This document shows positions 28,863 through 64,000 of a stretch of 64,000 bases of DNA, in pieces; the stretch's first letter is position 1, and every line of letters starts with the position of its first letter. The notes under the pieces were generated by a model. That model searched no databases. It was not told the DNA's origin and saw only the letters and a program-made list of their open reading frames with translations. A program made the position numbers and the translations under genes. This stretch comes from an uncultured virus (IMG/VR IMGVR_UViG_3300008113_011532) (Duplodnaviria; Heunggongvirae; Uroviricota; Caudoviricetes): IMG/VR virus record IMGVR_UViG_3300008113_011532; one strand, given 5' to 3'.

Positions 28863-28973
28863 ATGAAAGCAACAACACTAAATATGGCAATCGTGAGAAA
28901 CTTGATGGTGAATATTACATTATGTAATATTAGACCAGACGAGGGTTCCAGCCTATTTGTGGATGTCGCATAA
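28863..28973 (+). CDS. Attenuator leader peptide 1 (MKATTLNMAIVRNLMVNITLCNIRPDEGSSLFVDVA)
   Basis: 36 codons; the L M V N I T L C N I R block matches the downstream tRNA set; contains gacgagggttc complementary to the terminator 5' arm. Confidence 0.85.
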   Translation: MKATTLNMAIVRNLMVNITLCNIRPDEGSSLFVDVA

Positions 28974-28994
28974 GCATTCGTGAAAAGAAACTCG

Positions 28995-29030
28995 AACCCT
29001 CAGTCAAAAAACTGAGGGTTTTTTGTTTTT
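28995..29030 (+). terminator. Attenuator terminator 1
   Basis: aaccctcagt-caaaaa-actgagggtt plus U-tract. Confidence 0.85.
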
Positions 29031-29035
29031 ATAAA

Positions 29036-29116
29036 AGATTGAAAAAGGAAGTTGATAAATGTATTTTAGTTTGTGCTAACTGCCATAGAGAAATACACGA
29101 TGAAATTTCCAAATAA
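29036..29116 (+). pseudogene. C-terminal remnant of an HNH endonuclease
   Basis: Translates RLKKEVDKCILVCANCHREIHDEISK* with no start codon. Confidence 0.65.
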
Positions 29117-29121
29117 CATAC

Positions 29122-30018: not shown

Positions 30019-30091
30019 AGGGAATTAGCTCAATCGGGAGAGCACCAGTCTTACATACTGGAGGTAGCGGGATCGTAACCCGCATTCCCTA
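30019..30091 (+). tRNA. tRNA-Val(TAC)
   Basis: ccagt-ctTACat-actgg. Confidence 0.85.
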
Positions 30092-30093
30092 CT

Positions 30094-30198
30094 AGGCAGT
30101 GGCAACCGAAAGGGCTACTTCGTAAATGGTTTACAATTTGACTTCAAATCAAACTCCGCGGTTCAATTCCGCAAAACCCTACGGGACTTACCCTGCCT
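30094..30198 (+). ncRNA. tRNA-like RNA with UCA anticodon and an irregular, extended acceptor helix
   Basis: D-arm gtaa/ttac, tttga-ctTCAaa-tcaaa, T-arm gcgg-ttcaatt-ccgc; outer helix aggcag/ctgcct. Confidence 0.55.
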
Positions 30199-30202
30199 CT
30201 AC

Positions 30203-30285
30203 GCACCGGTGGTGAAACTGGAGATACACGCTGCGCTTAAACCGCAGTCCTTTATTGGTTGAGGGTTCGAGCCCCTTCCGGTGCA
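30203..30285 (+). tRNA. tRNA-Leu(TAA)
   Basis: ctgcg-ctTAAac-cgcag; long V-arm. Confidence 0.85.
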
Positions 30286-30318
30286 CTTAAATATATATAA
30301 AAGAAAAGTACAAAAAAC

Positions 30319-31089
30319 ATGAGCATAACACTACTCGGTACATGCAGAATAGATTCGATACCAGGACACAATAACCTGAACAATCTAATAAACTACCCAC
30401 ACTCGACGAAAGAAGTCATACAGATGCTCGAATTCATCTCAGGTAAGAAGGATTTGAAGAGTCCGTATAACCTACTTTGTCTAAGAGCGGCAATTATAGA
30501 AACAGTCTATCCGGGATCAATCTCAAGAGAGACCGGTCTACCCGAAAATGTAATCTTCGAAAGGTTCGAATTGACAGAGTCAAACGGTAAAAAACACATA
30601 CTTCAACAAACGTCAATCGTAGAAAAATTCAATCAAACTGAGGTATTTGTTATTGAGATTTCTTCAGTAAAAAATTACACACACAACGGACACTACCTAC
30701 ACCACCTCTGCGTAGACGAAAGATTTCCTGACTACAAAAGCATAACTCCAGTCGAAATACTTGACGAACACACTGTCAACAAACAGAGTGAGGCAGAAAT
30801 CGAGAAAGACATATTGAAAATCGTAGAAATGCTATCACCAAAGAAAATACTTATTGTATCACACTTCAACTACAAAAACGGAACAGAATTCATACCAAGT
30901 AGGAACGATTTAGTACGCACGCTTGAAAGAATATGTGAAAGAAACGGAATCGCCTTCGCAAATCCGGCAGAGCTACTGTCAGAACACGACCAGAACCTGA
31001 CTATGGGTAGCGACAGCGAACACTACACGCCACTCGGTAAAGTACTAATTGGCGAAAAGCTAAGTCAGATGATCGACAAACTGGCCTGA
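30319..31089 (+). CDS. Hypothetical protein, possibly SGNH/GSCFA-like
   Basis: GTCR at the N-terminus, IEISS and DSEHY motifs; AT-richer than neighbouring genes. Confidence 0.45.
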   Translation: MSITLLGTCRIDSIPGHNNLNNLINYPHSTKEVIQMLEFISGKKDLKSPYNLLCLRAAIIETVYPGSISRETGLPENVIFERFELTESNGKKHILQQTSIVEKFNQTEVFVIEISSVKNYTHNGHYLHHLCVDERFPDYKSITPVEILDEHTVNKQSEAEIEKDILKIVEMLSPKKILIVSHFNYKNGTEFIPSRNDLVRTLERICERNGIAFANPAELLSEHDQNLTMGSDSEHYTPLGKVLIGEKLSQMIDKLA

Positions 31090-31135
31090 ATGAAAAAAAA
31101 AATCTAAATAAACTTCCTGGCAAGAAAAAAATACA

Positions 31136-31156
31136 TATATTTGTTCAGTTCTTTGA
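31136..31156 (+). promoter_or_regulatory. TAnnTTTG promoter followed by boxA-like GTTCTTTGA
   Basis: tatatttg 31136-31143; gttctttga 31148-31156. Confidence 0.55.
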
Positions 31157-31175
31157 GAGAAAGCAATAAATAAAA

Positions 31176-31257
31176 GCTCTTGTGGTGGAATTGGTAGACA
31201 CGCTAGACTTAGGATCTAGTGCCGCAAGGTGTGCGAGTTCGAGTCTCGCCAAGAGTA
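31176..31257 (+). tRNA. tRNA-Leu(TAG)
   Basis: ctaga-ctTAGga-tctag. Confidence 0.9.
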
Positions 31258-31280
31258 CAGAAAAAAAAACGCTTCAAAGC

Positions 31281-31343
31281 TTGTCGGAATGGAAATAATG
31301 ACTATCTTTGAAAAACAATAACAGAACAAAGGTTCTTTGACAT
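31281..31343 (+). promoter_or_regulatory. TTG...TATCTTTG promoter followed by boxA-like GTTCTTTGACAT
   Basis: Motifs at 31281, 31303-31310 and 31332-31343. Confidence 0.6.
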
Positions 31344-31364
31344 ACTAAAACAAAAACAATAAAT

Positions 31365-31445
31365 GCTCCGGTGGTGGAATGGTAGACACGCTCGTTTCAG
31401 AGGCGAGTGCCGCAAGGTGTGAGGGTTCAAGTCCCTTCTGGAGTA
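31365..31445 (+). tRNA. tRNA-Leu(CAG)
   Basis: ctcgt-ttCAGag-gcgag. Confidence 0.9.
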
Positions 31446-31451
31446 CAAAAA

Positions 31452-31525
<74 letters not shown>

Positions 31526-31533
31526 CTAAAAAC

Positions 31534-31605
<72 letters not shown>

Positions 31606-31625
31606 CGAAAAAATGTTCTAAAAAG

Positions 31626-31680
31626 TTTGGTGGAACGAAAAGAAACACTAACTTTGTAAAACAAACGAGGTCTTTGACAT
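31626..31680 (+). promoter_or_regulatory. TTTG...TAACTTTG promoter followed by boxA-like GGTCTTTGACAT
   Basis: Motifs at 31626, 31649-31656 and 31669-31680. Confidence 0.6.
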
Positions 31681-31691
31681 AACAAGAAAAC

Positions 31692-31763
31692 GGCGCCATA
31701 GTTCAAGGGATAGAATAGAAGTTTCCTAAACTTTAGATCCAGGTTCGAATCCTGGTGGGGCCA
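31692..31763 (+). tRNA. tRNA-Arg(CCT)
   Basis: gaagt-ttCCTaa-acttt. Confidence 0.88.
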
Positions 31764-31777
31764 CTAAAAAACAAAAC

Positions 31778-31860
31778 GCGCCGATGGCGAAATTGGTAGA
31801 CGCGCCATCCTGAGGGGGTGGTGTCCTATGGATGTGGGGGTTCAAGTCCCCCTCGGCGTA
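31778..31860 (+). tRNA. tRNA-Leu(GAG)
   Basis: ccatc-ctGAGgg-ggtgg. Confidence 0.88.
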
Positions 31861-31873
31861 CAAAAAACACAAC

Positions 31874-31955
31874 GGCCTTGTGTTGGAAATGGTAGACAAG
31901 CACGTTTGAGGGGCGTGTGCCGAAAGGCGTATGGGTTCAAGTCCCATCAAGGTCA
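31874..31955 (+). tRNA. tRNA-Leu(GAG), second copy
   Basis: cacgt-ttGAGgg-gcgtg. Confidence 0.85.
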
Positions 31956-32003
31956 CAAAAGAATGCTCAGGCAACCCCCTGGTGAAAGCATTCGAAAATA
32001 TAT

Positions 32004-32076
<73 letters not shown>

Positions 32077-32090
32077 CTAAAAAAATACAT

Positions 32091-32163
32091 TGCGCGGTGG
32101 AGAAGTAGGTATCTCGTGAGGCTCATAACCTTAAGATCGGCGGTTCGAGTCCGTCCTGCGCTA
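32091..32163 (+). tRNA. tRNA-fMet(CAT), second copy
   Basis: 1:72 mismatch, tgagg-ctCATaa-cctta. Confidence 0.8.
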
Positions 32164-32283
32164 CAAAAACCCAGGCAACCTCCTGGTAGAAACAGAATGC
32201 TCAGGCAACCCCCTGGTAAAAAGCATTCGAGCTCTTTGAAATGTCAAATACTAAAAATAAAGCTCAGGCGTAATTAACCTGCA

Positions 32284-32413
32284 GCCTGGATGGTTCGAAA
32301 CATCCGATTTGATATGGTGTACTGGGCACGACACCCGCCGCTGAGGTTCGAATCCTCAGGTAAGGAATGGCTACCACGGGAGTAAGATTGGGTTCGATTC
32401 CCTTTATCAGGCC
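32284..32413 (+). ncRNA. Putative structured RNA with three T-loop-like hairpins
   Basis: ggatg-gttcgaaa-catcc, ctgagg-ttcgaat-cctcag and ggg-ttcgatt-ccc, closed by gcctg/caggc. Confidence 0.4.
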
Positions 32414-32510
32414 AAAAGACCAGACAACCCTCTGGCAGCAACGCTAACACAGCACAATGCGGGCTCATACCTGCGGCGTAGTGTGACGGTCAGGAGAGAC
32501 TGACAACCTT

Positions 32511-32586
<76 letters not shown>

Positions 32587-32654
32587 ATCAAAGGTCGCTG
32601 CAACGGGCTGCGAGAGCCGAGGATCGAAATGTTTGCAGACATAGACATCTAGGC

Positions 32655-32727
32655 AGTGTGTTCGTATAGGGGACTAGTACGTCGTTCGCGAAGAACGGAA
32701 ACACGGGTTCGAGTCCCGTACACACAA
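32655..32727 (+). tRNA. tRNA-like gene with a Glu-type body and aberrant anticodon loop
   Basis: Acceptor gtgtgt/acacac, T-arm acggg-ttcgagt-cccgt; loop cgcgaag lacks U33. Confidence 0.5.
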
Positions 32728-32737
32728 CAAAAAATAC

Positions 32738-32810
32738 ACGGGTGTAGCTCAGCTGGTAGAGTAGTGGTCTCCAAAACCATTGGTCGTGGGTTCGAATCCT
32801 ACCTCCCGTG
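32738..32810 (+). tRNA. tRNA-Trp(CCA)
   Basis: gtggt-ctCCAaa-accat. Confidence 0.88.
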
Positions 32811-32812
32811 CT

Positions 32813-33020
32813 AGATTAGTAATCGATATGATGGAGGGAATAGCCATCGCGTGAATGGCCCGACCTTTTGCATCACGGATAGTTGCGCAAACAATACGTG
32901 GACTAGGAGGAAAGCTATAACCGGCAAGGATTAGAAATCAAGTCGGAAAGAAGCAAGTACAGAACCCGAACGGACGAACTTACTAAGTCCAAAGGGTAAG
33001 GGTGTCGACAATGCTAATCT
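32813..33020 (+). ncRNA. Putative ~210-nt ncRNA between two tRNAs
   Basis: Closing helix agattagt/gctaatct plus tcgata/tgtcga; no substantial ORF. Confidence 0.45.
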
Positions 33021-33023
33021 TAA

Positions 33024-33097
33024 GGTCTTGTAGCTCAGTTGGTTAGAGCACTGGTCTCATAAACCAGGGGTCCTCGGATCGTGCCCGAGCAGGACCA
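33024..33097 (+). tRNA. tRNA-Met/Ile2(CAT), elongator type
   Basis: ctggt-ctCATaa-accag. Confidence 0.85.
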
Positions 33098-33113
33098 CAC
33101 CAGTATCTGGTAC

Positions 33114-34722: not shown

Positions 34723-34815
34723 ATGAAAACTTTCATCAACATAACAGCTATCTTCCCGCAGGATCAGGATCAACCGAAAAGGTTGTGGACTAGCTGCCTA
34801 TTGTCTGAAAGTTGA
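34723..34815 (+). CDS. Attenuator leader peptide 2 (MKTFINITAIFPQDQDQPKRLWTSCLLSES)
   Basis: PQDQDQP block matches the downstream Gln/Asp/Pro tRNAs; ggactagctg pairs with the terminator 5' arm. Confidence 0.88.
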   Translation: MKTFINITAIFPQDQDQPKRLWTSCLLSES

Positions 34816-34835
34816 TAAAGAACTTGAACGATATG

Positions 34836-34868
34836 AGCCCAGTTAGTCTTTGATTAGCTGGGTTTTTT
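34836..34868 (+). terminator. Attenuator terminator 2
   Basis: agcccagttagtc-ttt-gattagctgggtt plus U-tract. Confidence 0.85.
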
Positions 34869-54702: not shown

Positions 54703-55379
54703 TGAAACCCTGCACCGATACCAAGAAGGACCTGATAAGGCTAGCTAACGAGAAGAAGATATACCTCGAGGGCAGCATACTTAAGCTGCTGGACGCGGGC
54801 GACGACGCCGAATTCGCGGAGTACCTCAAAACTGCAAACGAGAAAGACAAGGAGAAGCGAAGGAGAGGCCTTGAGATAACCAAGGAGTTTCAGAGGAAGA
54901 ACCTTGAGCTCGAGGCGGCGGCGAAGGAGAACGAGAGGCTGATGGAGGAGGTTAGGACATCTCTACAGGAGACAGAGAACGACAGGCTGAAGATAGAGGC
55001 GCAGAACACAGAGCTTCTTAGCTGGAAGGAGGAGAACGAGAGGATAAGCGAGGAGCTACAAGACGCACTCGACGAGGCAGAGAGGGCCAGAAAGGACGCG
55101 GTCAACGCGAAGGAGGCAGCGGAGAACGACCTGGACCTTCTGCAGAAGAAGACGCAGTTCGAGCTCATCGGCTCGATAGTAAGAGTGGCACTTTGGATAA
55201 TAATGGGCGTTGGCGTCGCGACGACGCTGCTCTACATCGGCGCGATATTCTTCGGAAAGGACACACACATCATAGGGCCGGCGTGGTCCAACCTGATAAG
55301 CATACTACTCACCAACGCCTTCTCGATAGTCGGAACGATTATGGGCGTAAAGTACGCGACAGAGCGTGAAAAAAAGTGA
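54702..55379 (+). CDS. Coiled-coil protein with two C-terminal TM helices, coupled to the two-component genes
   Basis: Overlapping start; heptad-rich region; hydrophobic C-terminus. Confidence 0.7.
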   Translation: MKPCTDTKKDLIRLANEKKIYLEGSILKLLDAGDDAEFAEYLKTANEKDKEKRRRGLEITKEFQRKNLELEAAAKENERLMEEVRTSLQETENDRLKIEAQNTELLSWKEENERISEELQDALDEAERARKDAVNAKEAAENDLDLLQKKTQFELIGSIVRVALWIIMGVGVATTLLYIGAIFFGKDTHIIGPAWSNLISILLTNAFSIVGTIMGVKYATEREKK

Positions 55380-55420
55380 GAACCGAAAGGTAATATATAC
55401 AAAAAAAAAAGTTTTCGAAT

Positions 55421-56317
55421 ATGAACGACGAACAAAATGAAAATATTGGTTCAAACCCATTAAGTAGATTGAGTCAGTTGTTAAGTGATGTACCAACGCT
55501 TTTAGATGAGATAATAACATTCGCATCTACAGAAGAAGGTAGAAAAACACTTAAATCCGGACTGGAAGACGCAGGCGGTCCAGATGACGATAAAGTAGAC
55601 ATCGACACAAATTGTACGGCAACGAAAGTCATAAAAACTCTACAGGCAACACAAAACGTAGTTTATATAGGAAACACGACAAAGATTGCAATACAGGGAT
55701 CAGAAGGTGACAAATTCGACGGACCACTTTACGATGGTGCCAAAAACGGAAAAGTTAGTGCGAACATATGGGTTGCCGGAAAAAGCGAACCAACACACAT
55801 CATCGATGGACACCACAGATGGAGCGCGATTTCTATGCTGAATCCTGATACAGAGATTACAGGGATGATTTGGATAAAACTGGAACCAAACGTGGCACTT
55901 GCATTTTTGACAGCCGCACTTAGAGCTAGAGAATCAAAAGATCAAGGACAAGGCGCACCTACTGGCAACGTAACGCCAGTAAAAGGAAACTGCAAACCCG
56001 ATGTAATACTTCAAGAGTTGAACAAGTTAGGAGAAGATAGAGCCAGTGCCTTCATCAACAAATACAAATCAGACTTCAACGTAGAAGGTGAGGTTGTAGA
56101 AAAACTAGCATCAAACCTAGCAACAATCCAGGGAAATATACCTGCAAATGCACCAAAAAGAGAGCTAATGCCACAATTAGGATTCCATAAGACTGATTTG
56201 AACCTCGAAGACGAGACTATCGACATGCTAACTAAAGGGGAGGTTGACGTTAGAGAACCATTTGCAGAGAACACGAAGTGGATCAAGACCTACGAGCAGT
56301 TCAGGAACAAAAAATAA
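55421..56317 (+). CDS. ParB/Srx-like domain protein
   Basis: TQ and IIDGHHRW motifs; C-terminal WIKTYEQF motif. Confidence 0.6.
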   Translation: MNDEQNENIGSNPLSRLSQLLSDVPTLLDEIITFASTEEGRKTLKSGLEDAGGPDDDKVDIDTNCTATKVIKTLQATQNVVYIGNTTKIAIQGSEGDKFDGPLYDGAKNGKVSANIWVAGKSEPTHIIDGHHRWSAISMLNPDTEITGMIWIKLEPNVALAFLTAALRARESKDQGQGAPTGNVTPVKGNCKPDVILQELNKLGEDRASAFINKYKSDFNVEGEVVEKLASNLATIQGNIPANAPKRELMPQLGFHKTDLNLEDETIDMLTKGEVDVREPFAENTKWIKTYEQFRNKK

Positions 56318-56411
56318 AAAAAAGAGGAAAATCTTTCACGGAATACAAAACTTAGCTATATTTGTATCGTAAAAGAAAAAACGAAAGACAACAACTCTAA
56401 TATATACAACA

Positions 56412-56531
56412 ATGACAACGAACAGCAAACATAAGCATTTTAGTAAATCAAGCAAGTGGTTTAGCAAAAAACCCGAACTTGGTACTGGCAAAGTATTGCG
56501 TTTGTTCTCAGAGGATCTTACGACCATATAG
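56412..56531 (+). CDS. Attenuator leader peptide 3 (MTTNSKHKHFSKSSKWFSKKPELGTGKVLRLFSEDLTTI)
   Basis: K/H/F/W block matches the downstream His/Phe/Lys/Trp tRNAs; gaacttgg pairs with the terminator arm ccaagttc. Confidence 0.85.
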   Translation: MTTNSKHKHFSKSSKWFSKKPELGTGKVLRLFSEDLTTI

Positions 56532-56550
56532 ACAAAACAATAAAAGACAG

Positions 56551-56586
56551 AAACCCAAGTTCACGAGACTTGGGTTTTTTTGTTTT
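56551..56586 (+). terminator. Attenuator terminator 3
   Basis: aaacccaagtt-cacga-gacttgggttt plus U-tract. Confidence 0.85.
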
Positions 56587-56592
56587 ACACAT

Positions 56593-56665
56593 GGTGTGTG
56601 TAGCTCAGAGGCAGAGCGCTGGTTTGTGAAGCCAGAGGCCGGGATTTCGAAACTCCTCACGCACC
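56593..56665 (+). tRNA. tRNA-His(GTG)
   Basis: ctggt-ttGTGaa-gccag; G-1 and C73. Confidence 0.85.
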
Positions 56666-56676
56666 CAACATAACAA

Positions 56677-56752
56677 GGAGCTGTGGCAGATGTGGTCATT
56701 GCGCTGGACTGAAAATTCAGAGGAACGGGATCGTAACCCGTCGGCTCCACCA
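56677..56752 (+). tRNA. tRNA-Phe(GAA)
   Basis: ctgga-ctGAAaa-ttcag; encoded CCA. Confidence 0.85.
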
Positions 56753-56756
56753 AAAT

Positions 56757-56828
56757 TGCCTTGTAGCTGAGCGGTAAAGCACCTGACTCTTAATCAGGGG
56801 ATCGCAGGTTCAATCCCTGCCGGGGCAA
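56757..56828 (+). tRNA. tRNA-Lys(CTT)
   Basis: cctga-ctCTTaa-tcagg. Confidence 0.9.
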
Positions 56829-56840
56829 CAAAAAATACAA

Positions 56841-56913
56841 GCGTCGTTGGTGTAACGGCTTAGCATCTCTGGCTCCAACCCAGAGGGTCAGGGTTCGAAT
56901 CCTTGGCGGCGCG
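56841..56913 (+). tRNA. tRNA-Trp(CCA)
   Basis: tctgg-ctCCAac-ccaga. Confidence 0.88.
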
Positions 56914-56921
56914 CAAAATAT

Positions 56922-56996
56922 GACTTCGTAGCTCAGTTGGTTCAGAGCACTCCACTTTTAATGGAGGGGTCGTGGGTTCGAGCCCCACCGGGGTCA
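56922..56996 (+). tRNA. tRNA-Lys(TTT)
   Basis: ctcca-ctTTTaa-tggag. Confidence 0.9.
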
Positions 56997-56998
56997 CT

Positions 56999-57072
56999 GT
57001 GTCGGTAGCTCAGTCGGTCAGAGCGCTGGTTTGTGGAACCAGAGGTCGCGGGTTCAAGTCCCGTTCGACACC
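56999..57072 (+). tRNA. tRNA-His(GTG), second copy
   Basis: ctggt-ttGTGga-accag. Confidence 0.85.
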
Positions 57073-57077
57073 GAAAC

Positions 57078-57114
57078 GTGGATGTAGCTCAGCAGTTAGT
57101 GCACGAGATTGAAA
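57078..57114 (+). pseudogene. 5' half of a tRNA-Phe(GAA), truncated at the anticodon
   Basis: gtggatg-ta-gctc..gtgc-a-cgaga-ttGAAa followed by A-rich sequence. Confidence 0.55.
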
Positions 57115-57163
57115 TAAAAACAAAGAAGCACATAAAGCGTATAAAACAAAAAAAGAACGACAT

Positions 57164-57784
57164 ATGCTAATAAGGTTTCAAGACATAGTAAACAAATACG
57201 GGAAACCGAAAGGAATAATACACATAGGCGCACACCTAATGGAAGAAAGGACCGACTATATATCCTACGGACTATTCAACACCATCTGGGTAGAGGCAAA
57301 TCCGAGAGTCTTCGAATCAATAAGCTATGTCAACAACTTCGACTCGGAGGAAAAGGCTTTCAATTTCGCAATCTCGGACAAAGACGGCGAGACCGTGAAA
57401 CTGAACGTCACCAACAACGGCCAATCATCTTCAATACTCGAGTTGGAAAAGCACAAAATCCACCATCCGACAATCTTTGTAAGCGACGTGATTGAAGTAA
57501 AGACCAAAAGAATGGAAACTCTAATACAGGAAAACGGAATTAAAATTGAAAACTACGACTTCCTGAACATAGACATACAGGGTGCAGAACTTCTGGCACT
57601 CAAAGGCTTCGGCGAAATGCTGAATAGCATTTCGAGGATATACATAGAAATCAACACCAACGAACTGTACAAAGGATGTCCACTCGTTGGCGAGATTGAC
57701 GAATACCTAAGCAAATTTGGATTCCACAGGGCAGAAACCGCACTTACCGAGTTCGAATGGGGAGATGCTCTTTACATAAAGTGA
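57164..57784 (+). CDS. FkbM-family methyltransferase
   Basis: HIGAH, VEANP, SSSIL and NIDIQGAELLALKG motifs. Confidence 0.9.
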   Translation: MLIRFQDIVNKYGKPKGIIHIGAHLMEERTDYISYGLFNTIWVEANPRVFESISYVNNFDSEEKAFNFAISDKDGETVKLNVTNNGQSSSILELEKHKIHHPTIFVSDVIEVKTKRMETLIQENGIKIENYDFLNIDIQGAELLALKGFGEMLNSISRIYIEINTNELYKGCPLVGEIDEYLSKFGFHRAETALTEFEWGDALYIK

Positions 57785-58005
57785 TGAACCGGATCGACCT
57801 GCACGGAACAAAACACACCGAAGTACAGCAGAGACTCGACCAGTTCTACTGGGAGGCAATGCAACGCGGGCACTTCGAAGTCGAAGTCGTTACCGGTATA
57901 AGCGCCAGGATGAAGGAAATAGTGAGGAATGTTTCAAAGGACTACAACTTCAATGTCGAGGAAATACCACTGAATCCAGGATCGCTAATCGTTAGAATAA
58001 AATGA
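57784..58005 (+). CDS. Stand-alone Smr-domain protein
   Basis: IDLHG...EVVTG...NPGSLIV. Confidence 0.7.
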   Translation: MNRIDLHGTKHTEVQQRLDQFYWEAMQRGHFEVEVVTGISARMKEIVRNVSKDYNFNVEEIPLNPGSLIVRIK

Positions 58006-58184
58006 TGGAAATACTTAAGATAGAGGATTACAAATACTCGATAATCTACACAATGAACGAGGGTAAAGCCGAAGTACACAAACGAAAAGATGACGGCACC
58101 TGGCAGTCACTCAGAAACGGTAAGTGGATCGAAACAAAGGACTTTGCGGACATCGAGAAGGCACTTAAAACCAATAAAAAATAA
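58002..58184 (+). CDS. Small hypothetical protein
   Basis: Coupled 60 aa ORF. Confidence 0.5.
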   Translation: MMEILKIEDYKYSIIYTMNEGKAEVHKRKDDGTWQSLRNGKWIETKDFADIEKALKTNKK

Positions 58185-58190
58185 GAAAAG

Positions 58191-58318
58191 TAGGGAGTAG
58201 CTCAGCTGGTAGAGCACGTACAATACTCGTTTATGACTTTGCCTCGCAAGAGTGCCGAATAGAAGAGTTACTTCGGCTGTTAACCGCGTGGTCGCAGGTT
58301 CGAATCCTGTCTCCCTAC
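58191..58318 (+). ncRNA. tRNA-Asn(GTT)-like RNA with a 55-nt insertion in the anticodon stem (possible permuted Y/YrlA-like RNA)
   Basis: Acceptor tagggag/ctcccta with canonical D and T arms; removing 58219-58273 gives cgcgg-ctGTTaa-ccgcg. Confidence 0.7.
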
Positions 58319-58367
58319 CGAAATGTAAACATACGTTGATTGTAGAGATACAATAGTAAAATATAAA

Positions 58368-59999
58368 TTGATAATGTTCCAAAAAACAATCGCAATCTAT
58401 GGCTCACACGACTCGTCGTTCACATTCATAGACAATTCCGGTCAGCTAAGAATATTCGAGGTCGAAAGATTCACAAAGCAGAGGTATTCTTCGTTCTCCA
58501 AAAGGTTCGACACTCAATCAACCGGAATAAACGATCAGCTTAGGGAAGACTTCATAAACATGTTGAAGGAAAGACTTTTCGACAAAGACATCACAACAGT
58601 ACTTTACGAGGAAGTCTTCGAGGACGACTTCATCTTTCTGAGAAAACACTTCCCAAACGCAAACTTCGTTAAGTGGGACGACCACCACAAATCACACGCA
58701 TACTCAGCAATACAAAACTCCGGTTTCGAAGACTCAATCATATTGTCAATCGACGGAAGTGGGATCAATTCAGGTTCAACAAAGGTATTCGACTACCAGG
58801 ATAAAAAACTCTCACTGATAGACAACCATATGGTGAATCTCGGGCAGGCCTATACAATAAGCACACTACCACTCGTGGATATAACACATCAAAATCCGAA
58901 AGCCGAACTTCTATCCGCAGCTGGTAAATTCATGGGCATATGCGCTTACGGTGATGTCATCGAAGACTGGATTGCGCCTTTCCATGATTTTTATCTCAAT
59001 TTCATAAACTCTTCCTTCGAGGATTCATTGAGGAAGCTAACCCAACGACTAAAGCTGGAAGAGATAAATTTCGACCGAATTTACGAGAACGAGTCTTTCA
59101 ACCTGACAGGTGTCAAAGTGCTCACAGGTAAGAAAGCATACGACTTCGCAGCAACCTCTCAATTCGTGTTCGAAAAAATCGTTCTAAGTCTGGTAGAATT
59201 TTTTGTAGACAAATACAACAAGAACGTAATACTAACAGGAGGTTGCGCACTCAACGTTCTTGCTAACCAAAAGATTTTCGAGTATCTCAACAAAAGAGGA
59301 CTCTCACTCTACGTGCCACCGAATCCTTCAGACTGTGGTATCTCTTACGGAATGTGGATGTCCTACTTCACAGATTTCGAAAGTGGCGAGACTTGCTTTT
59401 CCGGTATTGAAATACTCGACGAAGACAAAATCGAAGTTTACGAAAACAACCACGCATACGAACCACTCACCTACGAATCGGTAGTCGGACACCTCAAGGC
59501 CGGTAAAATAATCGGCATCATCGACGGCAACTCAGAGGTCGGACCAAGAGCCCTCGGCAACCGAAGTATAATTTGCGATCCGTCATACGAGGGAATGAAA
59601 GACATACTGAATAGTAAAGTAAAGTTCCGAGAGTGGTTCAGGCCCTTTGCGCCTGTATGCACAGATGAGTACATGGAAACATACTTCGAAAACGCGTTCA
59701 GTTCAAAGTACATGACTTACGCACCTAAAGTCAAAGAAGAGTTTCGAAAACTATTACCTTCAATCACACACGCGGACGGTACCTCAAGGCTACAGACCGT
59801 TCACAGCGACGGAAGTCATTTCCATAGCATACTGACAGAGCTGAAAAGGCAAGGGCACATACCAGTAATACTCAACACATCATTCAACATAAAAGGAAGA
59901 CCGATACTTACGTCTTTGGAAGACGCATTTTACGTACTCGACAACACGCAACTGGATCTTCTAATACATAACGGTAAAATATATTCGAAGAAAGATTAG
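58368..59999 (+). CDS. Carbamoyltransferase (NodU/CmcH family)
   Basis: HDSS, EVERF, HHKSHA, GKFMG, GGCALN, EVGPRALGNRS, REWFRPFAP and LNTSFN motifs. Confidence 0.92.
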   Translation: MIMFQKTIAIYGSHDSSFTFIDNSGQLRIFEVERFTKQRYSSFSKRFDTQSTGINDQLREDFINMLKERLFDKDITTVLYEEVFEDDFIFLRKHFPNANFVKWDDHHKSHAYSAIQNSGFEDSIILSIDGSGINSGSTKVFDYQDKKLSLIDNHMVNLGQAYTISTLPLVDITHQNPKAELLSAAGKFMGICAYGDVIEDWIAPFHDFYLNFINSSFEDSLRKLTQRLKLEEINFDRIYENESFNLTGVKVLTGKKAYDFAATSQFVFEKIVLSLVEFFVDKYNKNVILTGGCALNVLANQKIFEYLNKRGLSLYVPPNPSDCGISYGMWMSYFTDFESGETCFSGIEILDEDKIEVYENNHAYEPLTYESVVGHLKAGKIIGIIDGNSEVGPRALGNRSIICDPSYEGMKDILNSKVKFREWFRPFAPVCTDEYMETYFENAFSSKYMTYAPKVKEEFRKLLPSITHADGTSRLQTVHSDGSHFHSILTELKRQGHIPVILNTSFNIKGRPILTSLEDAFYVLDNTQLDLLIHNGKIYSKKD

Positions 60000-60049
60000 T
60001 AATAATCGAAAACAAACGTTACATTTGTAATATATAAACAAAGACAACT

Positions 60050-60121
60050 ATGAAAGCATCTGTAAACATATCAAGCTCATCAAGTCGCTCATCAGCGGCC
60101 GAGGTCCGATTGTGTTTATAG
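60050..60121 (+). CDS. Attenuator leader peptide 4 (MKASVNISSSSSRSSAAEVRLCL)
   Basis: SSSSSRSS block matches the downstream Arg(ACG) and four Ser tRNAs; ccgagg pairs with the terminator arm cctcgg. Confidence 0.88.
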   Translation: MKASVNISSSSSRSSAAEVRLCL

Positions 60122-60144
60122 CTGTCGCATAACGATATTGTATG

Positions 60145-60175
60145 AACCCTCGGAAGAAACGCCGAGGGTTTTTTT
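60145..60175 (+). terminator. Attenuator terminator 4
   Basis: aaccctcgg-aagaaacg-ccgagggtt plus U-tract. Confidence 0.85.
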
Positions 60176-60179
60176 ATTT

Positions 60180-60251
60180 GGTTCCATCGTCCAACGGAAA
60201 GGACAGGTCGCTACGAACGATCAGATGGGGGTTCGAATCCCTCTGGGACTA
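60180..60251 (+). tRNA. tRNA-Arg(ACG)
   Basis: ggtcg-ctACGaa-cgatc. Confidence 0.9.
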
Positions 60252-60256
60252 CAAAA

Positions 60257-60347
60257 GGAGAAATAAGAGCAGTGTGGACTAAGCTCGGCGCACTTGAAAT
60301 GCGTAGGCCCTCGAGGTGTCTGGGTTCGAGCCCCAGTTTCTCCGCCA
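60257..60347 (+). tRNA. tRNA-Ser(TGA)
   Basis: gcgca-ctTGAaa-tgcgt; long V-arm, G73, CCA. Confidence 0.85.
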
Positions 60348-60361
60348 AAAAGTTAAATTAT

Positions 60362-60447
60362 GGAGAGCAAACCAGGGAGGTCCCTGGCACCGCCTGCTAA
60401 GCGAGTGGCCCGTTTTTTCGGGTGGGCTTCGACTGCTCTGCTCTCCG
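60362..60447 (+). tRNA. tRNA-Ser(GCT), 8/4 fold
   Basis: 8-bp acceptor ggagagca/tgctctcc; 4-bp T-stem gggc/gctc. Confidence 0.8.
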
Positions 60448-60453
60448 CAACAT

Positions 60454-60537
60454 GGAAGATGAACTGCAGCGGCCTGCAGCCCTGTCTCGAAAACAGCGGG
60501 TACCTCCGGGTATTGGGATCGACACCTACTTCTTCCG
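60454..60537 (+). tRNA. tRNA-Ser(CGA), 8/4 fold
   Basis: ctgt-ctCGAaa-acag; 8-position acceptor and 4-bp T-stem. Confidence 0.75.
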
Positions 60538-60542
60538 CAACT

Positions 60543-60626
60543 GGAAAGCTATCCCTGATGGTGATGGGGTCCGCCTGGAAAGCGCGACGTACCGCGAGGT
60601 ATACGGTTCGATTCCGTAGTTTTCCG
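60543..60626 (+). tRNA. tRNA-Ser(GGA), 8/4 fold
   Basis: Acceptor ggaaagct/agttttcc; T-stem acgg/ccgt. Confidence 0.8.
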
Positions 60627-60672
60627 CAAACAAAAGACGCATAAGTCCGTATAAAACAAAAAAATACAGTCT

Positions 60673-61065
60673 ATGCGAAAACTCATATTGGCCGTTCTAG
60701 CCATAACTTCGCTCCTGGCAACATCATGCCGTAGGTGCGAGGATCCGAAAGCACTCAACTACAGTTTAGATGCGATGGGCCGTGAGGACAACACGATCTG
60801 CAAGTACTCGAAGGCGATATTCTACGTATCCGGGCCGGCGAACTATCCACCACTCACACTCTACGTCAACGGATCTTCCGAGGGGACAATCTCAGGGTTC
60901 TATCCGTACGGACCTGGCAACTGCAGCGCCACAGGTTGCGCGGTATACCAGTTCACATCCGGCAACAGCATCGACTGGGAAGTCAGAGACGCCGTAGGAA
61001 ACGTAGTGAACGGAACATCCGAGCCGAGCCAGTACCAAGAGTGCATAAAAATAAGAGTATACTGA
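60673..61065 (+). CDS. Lipoprotein
   Basis: Signal peptide with lipobox-like LATSC; CEDPKALNY motif. Confidence 0.7.
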   Translation: MRKLILAVLAITSLLATSCRRCEDPKALNYSLDAMGREDNTICKYSKAIFYVSGPANYPPLTLYVNGSSEGTISGFYPYGPGNCSATGCAVYQFTSGNSIDWEVRDAVGNVVNGTSEPSQYQECIKIRVY

Positions 61066-61382
61066 TGATAAAAAAACTGATATACACGATTGCCGCCATA
61101 GTAACACTTTTCTTAGCAGAACCTACACAGGCTCAGAGCGGTTGGCAGGCAGGGCAATACTACCAATACGAGGGCCAAAGAACAATAGACTGCGATCCTT
61201 TCTGGGTCAAGGCCACACCATTCGGCATCGAAAGAAGATGCAGAATACTACAATGGGAAAAGCAATACTATACAGGAAACATACAAGTCTGGAACGGTTG
61301 GCAGTGGGTTTCACAATGGCAGACTACCTGGGCATGGTACTGTTGGTGGGGACCGTGGTACTTCCAGTACTCAGCACGATAG
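61065..61382 (+). CDS. Secreted Trp/Gln-rich small protein
   Basis: Signal peptide MIKKLIYTIAAIVTLFLA; many Trp residues in the C-terminal half. Confidence 0.65.
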   Translation: MIKKLIYTIAAIVTLFLAEPTQAQSGWQAGQYYQYEGQRTIDCDPFWVKATPFGIERRCRILQWEKQYYTGNIQVWNGWQWVSQWQTTWAWYCWWGPWYFQYSAR

Positions 61383-61500
61383 TTTTTTTACTTATTTTCA
61401 ATAAAATACAAAAAGAGAGAAAAAAACTTTTATATATAATCAACAAGTAAAGGAAAAACACCTATATTTGTAGAGTAAACAAAGACTAAAAACTGAAACA

Positions 61501-61587
61501 ATGAAAGCAACATTCAAAATAGAGGCCATAGGGTATGCGTATGAGGCGGGACGCCACATATCCGGACTGACTTTGTCTTTTGAGTAG
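61501..61587 (+). CDS. Attenuator leader peptide 5 (MKATFKIEAIGYAYEAGRHISGLTLSFE)
   Basis: IEAIGYAYEAG block matches the downstream Glu/Tyr/Ile(TAT)/Gly/Ala tRNAs; cggactg pairs with cagtctg. Confidence 0.88.
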   Translation: MKATFKIEAIGYAYEAGRHISGLTLSFE

Positions 61588-61608
61588 TTGATATATTACG
61601 ATATTGAG

Positions 61609-61640
61609 AAGCCCAGTCTGAGAAACAGACTGGGCTTTTT
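61609..61640 (+). terminator. Attenuator terminator 5
   Basis: aagcccagtctg-agaaa-cagactgggctt plus U-tract. Confidence 0.88.
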
Positions 61641-61647
61641 CGTTTAT

Positions 61648-61721
61648 GGTCCGTTCGTCTAGCGGTTTAGGACATCTTCCTTTCACGAAGAAGATCACGG
61701 GTTCGAATCCCGTACGGATCA
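61648..61721 (+). tRNA. tRNA-Glu(TTC)
   Basis: tcttc-ctTTCac-gaaga. Confidence 0.9.
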
Positions 61722-61744
61722 CAAAAAAAAAAAATGAAAAATAC

Positions 61745-61827
61745 TGGAAGGTGGCCGAGTGGTTAAAGGCGGCAGACTGTAAATCTGCTCTCGAAAGAGT
61801 ACGGGGGTTCGAATCCCTCCCTTCCAA
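61745..61827 (+). tRNA. tRNA-Tyr(GTA)
   Basis: gcaga-ctGTAaa-tctgc; long V-arm. Confidence 0.9.
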
Positions 61828-61833
61828 CAACAT

Positions 61834-61907
61834 GGTCCGTTAGTGAAGCGGCTTAACACGTCTCCCTTTCACGGAGAAGATCACGGGTTCGAATCCCGTA
61901 CGGACTA
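61834..61907 (+). tRNA. tRNA-Glu(TTC), second copy
   Basis: tctcc-ctTTCac-ggaga. Confidence 0.9.
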
Positions 61908-61914
61908 CAGAAAC

Positions 61915-61988
61915 TGGTAAGTAGCTTAGACGGTAGAAGCACGTGTCTTATACACACGAGATAGTGGGTTCGATACCCACCTTACCAA
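61915..61988 (+). tRNA. tRNA-Ile(TAT)
   Basis: cgtgt-ctTATac-acacg. Confidence 0.85.
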
Positions 61989-61995
61989 CAGAAAA

Positions 61996-62067
61996 GCAGG
62001 TATCGTACAACGGTTAGTACAGGGCACTTCCAATGCTCAGATGTCGGTTCGATTCCGGTTACCTGCA
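61996..62067 (+). tRNA. tRNA-Gly(TCC)
   Basis: gggca-ctTCCaa-tgctc. Confidence 0.88.
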
Positions 62068-62127
62068 CAAAAAGACTTAAAAGTCCTGCGTACACAGGAC
62101 GCGAGAAGGTTAGTCTTCCTTCTATCC

Positions 62128-62201
62128 GGGGCAGCATGTACCAAGGCAGGCGAGGAACACTTGCAATGTTCCTGTGGTGGGTTCGATTTCCACCTGCTCC
62201 A
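62128..62201 (+). tRNA. tRNA-Ala(TGC)
   Basis: gaaca-ctTGCaa-tgttc; G3:U70; atypical D-arm. Confidence 0.75.
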
Positions 62202-62226
62202 CGGAAACAAAAAATAAAAAGAAGAT

Positions 62227-62370
62227 ATGAAGAAAAGGACAGTTATCGAGGGCACAATGAGATCCAGCAGGGAAACGATGAGAAGAGAAGTAGAAACCAA
62301 CATCTCAATACTGGAGGCGATAAAAAAAATTGTGAGAAGGATTAAACAAAAGAGAAACGTAGAGATATAA
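62227..62370 (+). CDS. 47-aa basic hypothetical peptide inside the tRNA cassette
   Basis: [11 protein letters not shown]... read directly from the sequence. Confidence 0.4.
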
Positions 62371-62381
62371 ACTTTACAAAC

Positions 62382-62454
62382 GCGAGAATAGCTCAGTTGG
62401 TAGAGCGCCACCTTGCCAAGGTGGAGGTCGCGGGTTCGAATCCCGTTTCTCGCT
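62382..62454 (+). tRNA. tRNA-Gly(GCC)
   Basis: ccacc-ttGCCaa-ggtgg. Confidence 0.92.
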
Positions 62455-62563
62455 CTAAGCCCCGAAAGGGGCTTTCTCGTTTAGTAGCGTTTTGATAATG
62501 CGGAAAATTTACTATTCGATTACCGGAAAAAATACATACATTTGTAAAAAAGAAACAAACCAA

Positions 62564-62926
62564 ATGAAGAGCAGAAGAAAAGCAACGAAGGCAGAACTCA
62601 TAAGAGAGAGCAAAGATCACCCAGGATACTTCAAATACAAAGTGACCATAGAGGAAGTCGACGGAACAATCCACGACGTCCCAGCGTACGGAAAAGACAT
62701 GCAGGACGCAATCGAAAGACTCGTCTGGTCCGAGAGAATAGAGAAGGTGACGAACAAAAAAGGAATAATGCCGGTGTTCGCCGCACTGCTATTAGGTGTC
62801 GTTGCGGTATCGGGCATGATTGGCGTCATAAAGAACAACCCGTTGTGGGTCTTAGGCGGTCTCGGCGTGGCCGGAGTCGCGATGGCCATAAGCAACCACG
62901 TGAACAGCTACCTACACAAAGAATGA
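62564..62926 (+). CDS. Membrane hypothetical protein
   Basis: PAYGKDMQDA motif; two C-terminal TM helices. Confidence 0.6.
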   Translation: MKSRRKATKAELIRESKDHPGYFKYKVTIEEVDGTIHDVPAYGKDMQDAIERLVWSERIEKVTNKKGIMPVFAALLLGVVAVSGMIGVIKNNPLWVLGGLGVAGVAMAISNHVNSYLHKE

Positions 62927-63549
62927 GACTAATACTAACATATCTATCAGTAATGCTCTGCTTGACATCGTTCGGGCAGGGCATTTCTGCACGCCTGTTC
63001 CAGCCGTACGACGACACCGTGTTCGAAGGCCACCTTTACAAACTGGTGAGGATTGGAAACGTACACTACGAGAGCAATGGTTCGATGAACATACACTGGA
63101 AAATCTGGTTCCTGAACGACCTGAAACCCTACGAGAGGAACAACCTACTCGATATGAAGACGCAGAGAGACATGCCGGGCGTAGGTTTGTTCATCAATCC
63201 GAACTTCGACAGCATCTACTTCAACCCGACGGGCGCTATGAAGGCATGCCCAAACGGATGGAGAGTTCCAAGGATCAGTGAGTGGGACACGCTGTTCGAC
63301 CAGCTGAACATCGACATGAAGATGTACATGTTCAGAGAGTTACCAGGCTACATAAGCTACAACATAGTGAAGAGCGACACCGTGGCAATCAGGAAGGTCG
63401 AGAGACTGCACGGCGGCATTTGGTGGTCTTCCAACATAGACGGCGAAAGATGCGAGGGGATAGAGCTCGACAACAGCAGGAACAAGAACAAAGGCAAGGG
63501 ATCACTACACGACCGAGCCGCCGTTAGGTGCGTAAGGGACGAAGAATGA
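62923..63549 (+). CDS. FISUMP (Fib_succ_major)-domain secreted protein
   Basis: ACPNGWRVP..EW, WWSS and AVRCVRD motifs; signal peptide. Confidence 0.75.
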   Translation: MRLILTYLSVMLCLTSFGQGISARLFQPYDDTVFEGHLYKLVRIGNVHYESNGSMNIHWKIWFLNDLKPYERNNLLDMKTQRDMPGVGLFINPNFDSIYFNPTGAMKACPNGWRVPRISEWDTLFDQLNIDMKMYMFRELPGYISYNIVKSDTVAIRKVERLHGGIWWSSNIDGERCEGIELDNSRNKNKGKGSLHDRAAVRCVRDEE

Positions 63550-63577
63550 GAAAAGGCACCCGTTTGGGTGCCTTTCT

Positions 63578-64000
63578 CTATTTCCTAAGGTGCCACTTCC
63601 TGGTGTCAGGAAGAGCGTCCCATGTCTCTGGTTCGTACTTCTGAGCCAACTCTATAAGCTTCATCGCCGTCTTCTTGTTGTCGTCCGACGTCCTCTTACG
63701 GGTCATCGCCATCCAGCAGTAAGCACCGACGTATCCTTGCTTAGCGTCCATATCGTTCTCTACGAAGTCAATTAGGTCAAGCCTTCCGTATTCGGCAGCC
63801 CACTTCAATATCCAGAAGTTGCCCTGCTCGTCACACATGCTCGCTCCGTACTCGAGAGCGATTTTGAATGAGTCCCAATAAACCTCGCCTGGCTCAGTGG
63901 CGCTCTTGTACGAGCCCTTACACGAAGCCCTAAGCGGAAGAGAGTTCTCGAAGTTAGGATCAAGACCGGACTTCAAGCAGAACTCGACGGTATTCTTGTC
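63578..64000 (-). CDS. Ankyrin-repeat-like protein (probably 5'-partial)
   Basis: GLDPNFENSLPLRASC and LKWAAEYG motifs; frame open to the window edge. Confidence 0.45.
   Translation of the reverse strand, partial: DKNTVEFCLKSGLDPNFENSLPLRASCKGSYKSATEPGEVYWDSFKIALEYGASMCDEQGNFWILKWAAEYGRLDLIDFVENDMDAKQGYVGAYCWMAMTRKRTSDDNKKTAMKLIELAQKYEPETWDALPDTRKWHLRK

Follow-up and report, generated by a model that had tools for sequence, protein, structure and literature searches.

A probable leader-peptide attenuator in front of an arginine and serine tRNA cassette in an uncultured phage

The stretch of DNA considered here (hereafter, the window) comprises 64,000 nucleotides of an uncultured Caudoviricetes virus, IMG/VR record IMGVR_UViG_3300008113_011532. 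Our subject is the region 60050-60626 on its + strand, in which a short serine-rich open reading frame (ORF) and an intrinsic terminator precede a cassette of one arginine and four serine tRNA genes. A first-pass annotation, made from the sequence without database searches, had proposed an attenuator at this location. Based on the sequence and its comparison with relatives, we consider it likely that the region is a ribosome-mediated (leader-peptide) transcription attenuator controlling the phage Arg/Ser tRNA cassette, so that slow decoding of Ser and Arg codons is probably a condition for synthesis of these tRNAs. At the level of sequence the proposal has held up well: all of the anatomical features of an attenuator are present and are conserved, with covariation, in 31 loci, and the leader codons match the tRNAs of the cassette that follows, both in the Ser/Arg unit and in 22 further units across four phage genomes.

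The leader ORF comprises 23 codons and a TAG stop codon (ATG at 60050, TAG at 60119-60121, + strand) and encodes MKASVNISSSSSRSSAAEVRLCL. The gene upstream of it ends at 59999, and the leader is the only gene between the promoter-like box described below and the tRNA cassette. Under a rule that is blind to composition, and which selects the longest ATG-initiated ORF ending just before the terminator, it is the sole ATG ORF upstream of the terminator. Codons 8-15 (60071-60094) read TCA AGC TCA TCA AGT CGC TCA TCA, that is, seven Ser codons (TCA five times, AGC and AGT) and one Arg codon (CGC). The annotated SSSSSRSS run, said to sample both Ser codon boxes together with a CGN codon, was thus confirmed by reading the codons, and the positions given for it, for ccgagg (60099-60104) and for cctcgg (60148-60153) are exact. 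All eight codons of the run can be decoded by tRNAs of the cassette, compared with a background share of 0.072 among the 11,337 codons of 27 long ORFs in the window (binomial p = 7e-10, before correction for the choice of this run within 22 codons). The claim that arginine is split by codon box also proved correct, in that AGA occurs twice in the leader of the first cassette, which contains Arg(TCT), and CGC occurs in the 60050-60121 leader. Read-through of the TAG would extend the leader to a TGA at 60143-60145; an alternative genetic code is not supported, as ORFs tile the window under translation table 11.

Upstream of the ORF lies a promoter-like -7 box, TACATTTG (60020-60027, + strand), read from the sequence. 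It is of the TAnnTTTG type, which we take to be the Bacteroidota consensus, and a box of the same type precedes the leader in loci W01, W02, L102, and others of alignment A2. A sigma-70 scan returned no + strand site at 60020-60027. We presume that the host of the window phage belongs to the Bacteroidota, by analogy with five huge-phage genomes of >634 kb that belong to the "Mahaphage" clade, for which Bacteroidetes hosts were predicted (PMC7162821).

The terminator (60144-60171, T run to 60176, + strand) has a GC-rich stem of 10 base pairs, GAACCCTCGG / CCGAGGGTTT, and an 8-nucleotide loop, with ccgaggg of its right arm at 60162-60168. It ends 8 nucleotides before the start of tRNA-Arg(ACG) at 60180, too close for a promoter of their own, and expression of the tRNAs therefore needs read-through. 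Within the leader, GUCGCU (60084-60089, the Arg codon and its flanks) pairs with AGCGGC (60094-60099) to form a protector hairpin (60084-60099, + strand). This hairpin abuts the antiterminator strand, or segment 2 (60099-60109, + strand), which comprises CCGAGG and the conserved core GAGGTCCGA (60101-60109). In the minimum free energy (MFE) structure, an outer 1:2 helix (60056-60073 with 60108-60125, + strand) encloses the protector hairpin and the stop codon, and an analogous outer helix is found in W01 and W02. The leader RNA as a whole (60034-60178) folds at -41.4 kcal/mol (z -3.9; none of 200 shuffles equal), and its default fold combines the outer helix, the Arg-codon hairpin, and the terminator. 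When a ribosome was masked on the regulatory codons and the transcript was cut before the right arm, 60099-60109 paired with the terminator left arm at 60148-60154, and when the ribosome was masked at the stop codon the terminator formed, the ribosome footprint sizes being assumptions in both simulations.

The pairing of ccgagg with cctcgg, which the first-pass annotation had singled out, is indeed the best RNAduplex pairing between the 3' part of the leader and the terminator left arm (-11.7 kcal/mol, 60098-60105), and the left arms of the 22 other units all pair worse with that part of the leader. The antiterminator pairing stands, and it is its register that we have refined. The conserved register joins the core at 60101-60109 (GGTCCGA) with TCGGA at 60150-60154, overlapping ccgagg and shifted a few bases 3'. 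Both registers are possible in the window and each sequesters the terminator left arm. The nearest relative, L102, has one change that reduces the ccgagg pairing to a wobble, and a second by which the conserved register grows to 6 base pairs.

From this anatomy, we infer that the leader is translated, and that ribosome stalling on it and the kinetics of RNA pairing decide the outcome. Transcription would start a few bases after the TACATTTG box and a ribosome would translate the 23-codon leader behind RNA polymerase. If aminoacyl-tRNA for Ser (TCA, AGC, AGT) or Arg (CGC) were scarce, the ribosome would stall at 60071-60094 and melt the Arg-codon hairpin at 60084-60099, freeing 60099-60109. The freed strand would capture the left arm (60148-60154) ahead of synthesis of the right arm, allowing read-through into Arg(ACG) and the four Ser tRNAs. 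With fast decoding, the ribosome would instead reach the TAG at 60119-60121 and cover the antiterminator strand, so that the terminator could fold and end transcription at the T run (~60172-60178). Given that the test codons are decoded by the products themselves, such a circuit would constitute negative feedback on tRNA supply.

Homologues were sought with a 21-base pattern, written in the code of the International Union of Pure and Applied Chemistry, that is confined to the antiterminator core and the stop codon. It gave 24 metagenome contigs and four IMG/VR contigs, which together with the window and two huge phages (634-642 kb) found among huge-phage records make 31 homologous loci (28 distinct sequences). 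The huge phages, LR745206.1 (634,780 bp) and LR756502.1 (642,428 bp), carry leaders MKTINNTSKSSSRSSSMSEIRLYS and MKTTIKNTSSRSRSSKSGEVRLYS; downstream of each come a terminator and then the tRNAs Arg(ACG), four Ser, and Arg(TCG). Among the 55 pattern matches in metagenome contigs, 24 are true homologues and the remaining 31 were dropped by eye as chance matches with no Ser-rich ORF, terminator, or tRNA. All four matches in IMG/VR are true, one of them on a 385-kb contig, and none of the 14 matches in 185,579 cellular genomes (one per species) is, all having been dropped by eye for want of the same three features. A blastn search of the phage collection with the leader alone returned LR745206.1 as the only real match among the matches listed, the others being short chance matches. 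Two other searches of IMG/VR added nothing: a scan with a tRNA-Arg pattern, which was too generic, gave 48 loci with an attenuator in none of them, and the upstream carbamoyltransferase (58368-59999) led to no close relatives.

We give conservation counts out of 24 for the distinct sequences that were first aligned, and out of 28 for all distinct sequences. The leader ORF is intact in 28/28. The (Ser)n-Arg-Ser-Ser run is kept in 24/24 leaders, each of which contains TCR, AGY, and CGY codons (TCG in 21/24, TCY in 16/24), while the Ser positions turn over synonymously, also between the two codon boxes. The distance from the Arg codon to the core is 21 nucleotides in 20/24 sequences and 18 nucleotides in the window. 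The terminator is part of the MFE structure in 23/24; simulated stalling gives the antiterminator in 24/24, and a ribosome at the stop codon gives the terminator in 24/24. An Arg-codon hairpin of at least 5 base pairs is found in 28/28 (mean z -3.5). Among the 24 metagenome loci, 23 have a tRNA-Arg (ACG in 21, TCG in 2) with Ser tRNAs behind it, and the 24th ends after 162 nucleotides.

The core, with the consensus GAGRTYCGA, contains two variable positions. The partner of its Y is the left-arm base that follows TCG (T:A in 18 sequences, C:G in 4, T:G in 2, no mispairs), and the partner of its R lies two bases further (G:C in 15, A:T in 6, G:T in 2, and a single G:A, which is that of the window, where the base lies in a loop). 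The first position thus pairs in 24/24 and the second in 23/24; these counts were read per sequence from related sequences, uncorrected for phylogeny, and are not independent events. The A:T state is present in two separate sequence groups, which implies more than one event. At the first position the right arm is complementary to the left arm wherever this is paired, and hence segment 3 retains its complementarity to segment 2 and to segment 4 alike. Because most of segment 2 was fixed in the search pattern, covariation is readable only at the two positions left degenerate. We tried and dropped a single consensus structure for alignment A2, as MAFFT sets the terminators in different registers.

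The Ser/Arg unit is one of five in the window, all on the + strand. Unit 1 (28863-29021) has a leader beginning MKATTLNMAIVRNLMVNITLCNIRP and a terminator, followed by a cassette of Asn, Asn, Ile(GAT), Arg(TCT), Ile, Cys, and Thr(TGT) tRNAs. In unit 2 (34723-34865), a leader containing PQDQDQP and a terminator precede Gln, Gln, Asp, Pro, and Asp. Unit 3 (56412-56577) combines a leader containing KHKHFSKSSKWFSKK and a terminator with His, Phe, Lys, Trp, Lys, and His, and unit 5 (61501-61638) combines a leader containing IEAIGYAYEAG and a terminator with Glu, Tyr, Glu, Ile(TAT), Gly, Ala, and Gly. A further 18 units lie in the tRNA regions of the closest public relatives of the window, the uncultured phage genomes LR745206.1, LR756502.1, and LR756501.1, giving a total of 23. 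The composition-blind rule selected the leader that we used in 23/23 units, and in 22/23 there was no candidate in another frame. In a matrix of leader-by-cassette enrichment z-scores, each of the 23 leaders scored highest with its own cassette, and in none of the four genomes (120, 5040, 5040, and 24 permutations) did any other assignment of leaders to cassettes score as well as the true one. Antiterminator duplexes were stronger than those of dinucleotide shuffles (z<0) in 23/23 units, with p<=0.05 in 16/23.

The leaders also follow rearrangements of the cassettes. Relatives with separate Gln and Pro/Asp cassettes have leaders containing QQIQQQQ or QQQQQQQ, and PQPQDQDP, the QQIQQQQ leader preceding three Gln tRNAs, and those in which Glu/Tyr and Ile(TAT)/Gly are split have leaders containing YESYYEE and IAVIGNGAGAI. 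The genome of LR756501.1 (735,411 bp) has no separate Ser unit; a Ser run lies inside its His/Phe/Lys/Trp leader, and the corresponding cassette carries Ser(CGA) along with Ser(GCT) and Ser(GGA) of the 8/4 form described below. The same genome has a Leu unit (L064, reverse strand, 344-475), the leader of which, MNNILHINLLNSLCLLGIKLIG, uses all six Leu codons ahead of five Leu tRNAs (TAG, GAG, CAA, TAA, TAG).

The match extends from the amino acid to the isoacceptor. All three Ile codons in the leader of unit 1 are ATY, and its cassette holds Ile(GAT), and all three in the leader of unit 5 are ATA, and its cassette holds Ile(TAT). We defined as informative those codons whose amino acids have isoacceptors in different cassettes, and derived the expectation from codon usage. 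In the window, 23 of the 27 informative codons are decoded by the leader's own cassette, where 13.1 are expected (z 4.1). Across the four genomes, with the codon usage of the window as background throughout, 59 of 78 match and 36.8 are expected. Seven mismatches stem from Ser tRNAs that were missed by ARAGORN, and five of these seven codons are decoded once the 8/4 Ser(GCT) and Ser(GGA) are counted.

It is at this point that the tRNA-supply interpretation can be set against its nearest rival, in which the hardware is the same and the signal is amino-acid starvation, i.e., the charging of Ser and Arg tRNAs and not their amount. To a stalled ribosome the absence of a tRNA and the lack of its charging look alike, the trp, his, and thr attenuators share the architecture, and a response to serine hydroxamate would be expected under both explanations. 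A pure amino-acid sensor, however, has no need of codons that track its own isoacceptors (ATA versus ATY, AGA versus CGC, and the excess of informative matches just described), and extra tRNA gives no relief from starvation. We therefore think it unlikely that starvation is the signal, since the use of own-cassette isoacceptor codons favors a sensor of tRNA supply.

Alternatively, the units might report the general rate of translation or its coupling to transcription, with any slowing of ribosomes, be it through host shut-off, defence, or the stage of infection, opening all cassettes and codon identity being secondary. The five units of the window are in fact alike in layout and in the way their leaders start (MKA, MKT, or MTT), but such a sensor does not predict the cassette-specific composition of 23/23 leaders, nor that this composition should follow cassette rearrangements, and we regard it as very improbable. 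Least credible of all is that there is no regulation, and that an ordinary terminator or insulator, or an element for processing or stability of the tRNA precursor, happens to follow a fortuitous ORF or a micropeptide with a function of its own; for while terminator-like hairpins are common (13 in 55000-64000, with 9.1 expected in shuffles) and AT-rich spacers easily yield short ORFs, this leaves aside the promoter-like box between the upstream stop codon (59999) and the ORF, the retention of the ORF and its Ser/Arg codons in 28 distinct sequences despite synonymous change, the covariation of the leader 3' part with the terminator arm, the read-through required by a terminator 8 nucleotides from the first tRNA, and 23 units whose peptides share composition only with their own cassettes.

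Several observations nevertheless weigh against an attenuator, among them the two limits on the covariation noted above. The terminator (-16.5 kcal/mol) is more stable than the antiterminator (-11.7 kcal/mol), and the switch must therefore be kinetic. For the Ser/Arg unit alone, the excess of the antiterminator over dinucleotide shuffles is modest (p=0.043), and the antiterminator duplexes of 7/23 units have p>0.05. In only 12/24 sequences is the core tied up by the outer 1:2 helix; this half support led us to discard the helix as a conserved feature, and the conserved protector is the inner, Arg-codon hairpin (28/28). A Ser(GGA) gene is usually present, yet 8/24 leaders lack TCY codons, and in two homologues (L100 and L118) the leader contains CGT but the first tRNA is Arg(TCG), with which it has no standard wobble pairing. 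The leader ORF (60050-60121) has no Shine-Dalgarno sequence, and we assume its translation from the A-rich context and the presumed Bacteroidota host. On the supporting side, a metatranscriptome (X20) contains a 275-nucleotide contig, 94% identical to the window, that spans 60046-60311 and thereby the leader, the terminator, tRNA-Arg, and part of a tRNA-Ser. As support from RNA this contig is weak, given that it may derive from carried-over DNA and that contigs show no starts, ends, or levels. It differs from the window in an AGC->AGT change in the Ser run, a C->T change that leaves only a wobble at one C:G pair of ccgagg:cctcgg, and an altered terminator loop.

If the attenuators do respond to tRNA supply in vivo, the units of this lineage of huge phages, taken together, may form a distributed, codon-resolved sensor of tRNA demand, in which each leader is written in the codons of its own cassette, so that the phage gauges for every codon family whether decoding still works in the infected cell and refills only the missing tRNAs. 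We consider the case for and against this broader proposal to be evenly balanced. The demand could arise where the host tRNA pool is mismatched to the phage, is depleted by host shut-off, or is cleaved by anticodon-nuclease defences. If true, tRNA genes would here for the first time be found under feedback by translational attenuation, which would also be a built-in counter to tRNA-depleting defences. The attenuator, if real, would by itself be the shortest possible loop from the speed of decoding at a codon to the synthesis of its decoder. It would mean that phages tune their tRNA supply by codon family, would explain why the tRNAs of huge phages are kept in small cassettes grouped by amino acid, and would connect them, concretely and testably, with host defences based on tRNA cleavage. 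The units would also be compact parts, of ~130 nucleotides, for codon- or tRNA-specific sensors.

Leader-peptide attenuation is familiar from the enterobacterial leaders trpL, hisL, pheL, and leuL, and from the multivalent thrL and ilvL. Our units resemble these in having a promoter, a short ORF with regulatory codons, and mutually exclusive protector, antiterminator, and terminator hairpins, as well as a stop codon placed so that a ribosome that has finished the leader blocks the antiterminator. Like thrL and ilvL, the Ser/Arg leader is multivalent, with two amino acids in a single leader. They differ in that tRNA genes, and not biosynthetic enzymes, would be controlled, so that the output decodes the test codons, and in that they are phage-encoded, with several units per genome, each matched to its cassette at the level of the isoacceptor. 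There is also no sequence similarity, in that Rfam leader families stay below their gathering scores (His_leader, RF00514, 20.6 bits with a cut-off of 49; L10_leader, 23.0 with 44; trpB motif, 21.9 with 59), and these scores are largely driven by the terminator. The pheM leader, which controls the phenylalanyl-tRNA synthetase operon pheST by leader-peptide attenuation, provides another parallel, as a component of translation is controlled there by ribosome stalling at cognate codons. The product of pheST is a synthetase that raises charging, whereas the product here is the tRNA itself. T-boxes, in turn, bind uncharged tRNA directly, need no translation, and control synthetase and amino-acid genes. 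They share with our units a terminator/antiterminator switch that reports the state of a specific tRNA, but here an ORF of the translated type is conserved, and Rfam gives no T-box match at gathering score in the whole window and none at E up to 10 in 59900-60750.

Control of tRNA genes is, in textbooks, exerted at the promoter, through growth rate and the stringent response. The attenuation mechanism proposed here is of a known kind, and it is the tRNA-gene target and the feedback logic that would follow from it that are new. Full-text literature searches, exclusive of subscription journals, yielded no description of leader-peptide attenuation of tRNA genes. Neither "attenuat" nor "leader" occurs in the portion of the huge-phage paper PMC7162821 that was searchable, and neither "tRNA gene" nor "tRNA operon" occurs in the corresponding portion of a genome-wide survey of premature terminators (PMC2965389). 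The general mechanism of leader-peptide attenuation is summarized in PMC1183508.

The tRNA cassette of the Ser/Arg unit contains what the first-pass annotation had listed, Arg(ACG) and Ser TGA, GCT, CGA, and GGA, as judged by ARAGORN, Rfam, folds, and covariation. All five genes are on the + strand. The first, tRNA-Arg(ACG) (60180-60252), was found by ARAGORN and scores 54.6 bits in Rfam. It is followed by a canonical 7/5 tRNA-Ser(TGA) (60257-60344, or to 60348 with its encoded CCA), which scores 44.1 bits in Rfam and was reported by ARAGORN at a relaxed threshold only. The other three have the rare 8/4 cloverleaf and were recognized by their folds and covariation: tRNA-Ser(GCT) (60362-60447; 88.1 bits to model R1), tRNA-Ser(CGA) (60454-60537; 84.7 bits), and tRNA-Ser(GGA) (60543-60626; 83.1 bits). 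Ser(GCT) and Ser(CGA) were missed by ARAGORN and are not in the Rfam tables, while Ser(GGA) was found by ARAGORN at a relaxed threshold only and scores 32.9 bits with the Rfam tRNA-Sec model, under its cut-off of 47 bits.

Without constraints, the three tRNAs each fold into an 8-base-pair acceptor stem, a 6-base-pair D stem, a bulged 6-base-pair anticodon stem, a 5-base-pair variable arm, and a 4-base-pair T stem. A consensus of nine sequences, the three of the window and six from two relatives, has helices of 8/6/6/5/4 base pairs with 96.2% of cells paired, and 22 of its 29 pairs have changed on both sides, which was matched in none of 500 shuffles. With an 8-base-pair acceptor stem, a 4-base-pair T stem, and a long variable arm, the genes in 60362-60626 are of the 8/4 type as defined in PMC5389517, and the anticodons GCT, CGA, and GGA, together with the long variable arm, suggest that their identity is Ser. 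The (8/4) tRNA-Ser form has already been reported from phages (Mukai et al., Nucleic Acids Res 2016; PMC5389517). Our tRNAs share with the (8/4) tRNA-Ser/allo-tRNA group the 8-base-pair acceptor stem, the 4-base-pair T stem, the long variable arm, the Ser anticodons, and a location in phage tRNA clusters. They differ from it in that the anticodon stem is of 6 base pairs with one bulge, and in that three such isoacceptors (GCT, CGA or TGA, and GGA) stand with a canonical Ser(TGA) behind a Ser-codon attenuator. Further 8/4 Ser tRNAs are present at L001 (3273-3633), at L002 (3327-3733), and at most of the homologous loci of the Ser/Arg unit. Since ARAGORN misses 8/4 tRNAs by default, tRNA counts for such phages are underestimates.

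The window as a whole contains at least 44 tRNA genes, of which ARAGORN and Rfam each found 41, and others were missed by both. Most of its ORFs are without a Pfam family, and auxiliary genes are scattered among them. Contigs from three DNA sequencing runs, each of a different study, contain stretches identical to parts of the window; two of the runs are labeled freshwater and one "fungus metagenome". The metatranscriptome X20 has no depth over 59819-60025 or 60647-61267, which carries no weight as evidence: the related strain in it lacks 60629-61383, since one contig joins 60628, at the end of the Ser cassette, to 61384, in the promoter region of the next unit, and contigs show neither ends nor levels. 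Within 60629-61383 of the window lies an ORF (60673-61065) that begins with a lipoprotein-like signal, MRKLILAVLAITSLLATSC.

The remaining observations concern the other tRNA regions. In unit 1, the remnant of an HNH endonuclease gene (29030-29120) separates the terminator from the first tRNA, with blastn matches to HNH genes of jumbo phages, and LR756502.1 (L056) has a small ORF at the matching position. In 30019-33098 of the window, blocks of Val/Leu, Leu/Val/Thr/Arg(CCT)/Met, and Ala/Trp/Met tRNAs have promoter-like boxes and no leader ORF or terminator of their own. In relatives, Leu, Val, Thr, and Met tRNAs stand behind a leader of the unit 1 type, which holds Leu, Val, Thr, and Met codons as well, and the layout in the window may be a broken-up version of that arrangement. 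A tRNA-like sequence at 30111-30182, between tRNA-Val(TAC) and tRNA-Leu(TAA), has the anticodon TCA and would read UGA; it was reported by ARAGORN at a relaxed threshold only and is not in the Rfam list. In LR756501.1, two adjacent tRNAs with the anticodon CTA (L069, 586-740) resemble amber suppressors and may point to recoding of TAG in that genome; nothing similar was seen in the window. Finally, repeated hairpins, gctcaggcaaccccctggt and variants of it, lie between tRNA genes of the window at 31966-32510, 32585-32655, and 32820-33020, interspersed with isolated pieces resembling a T arm (ggttcgaatcc), and neither the hairpins nor these pieces were named by any tool.

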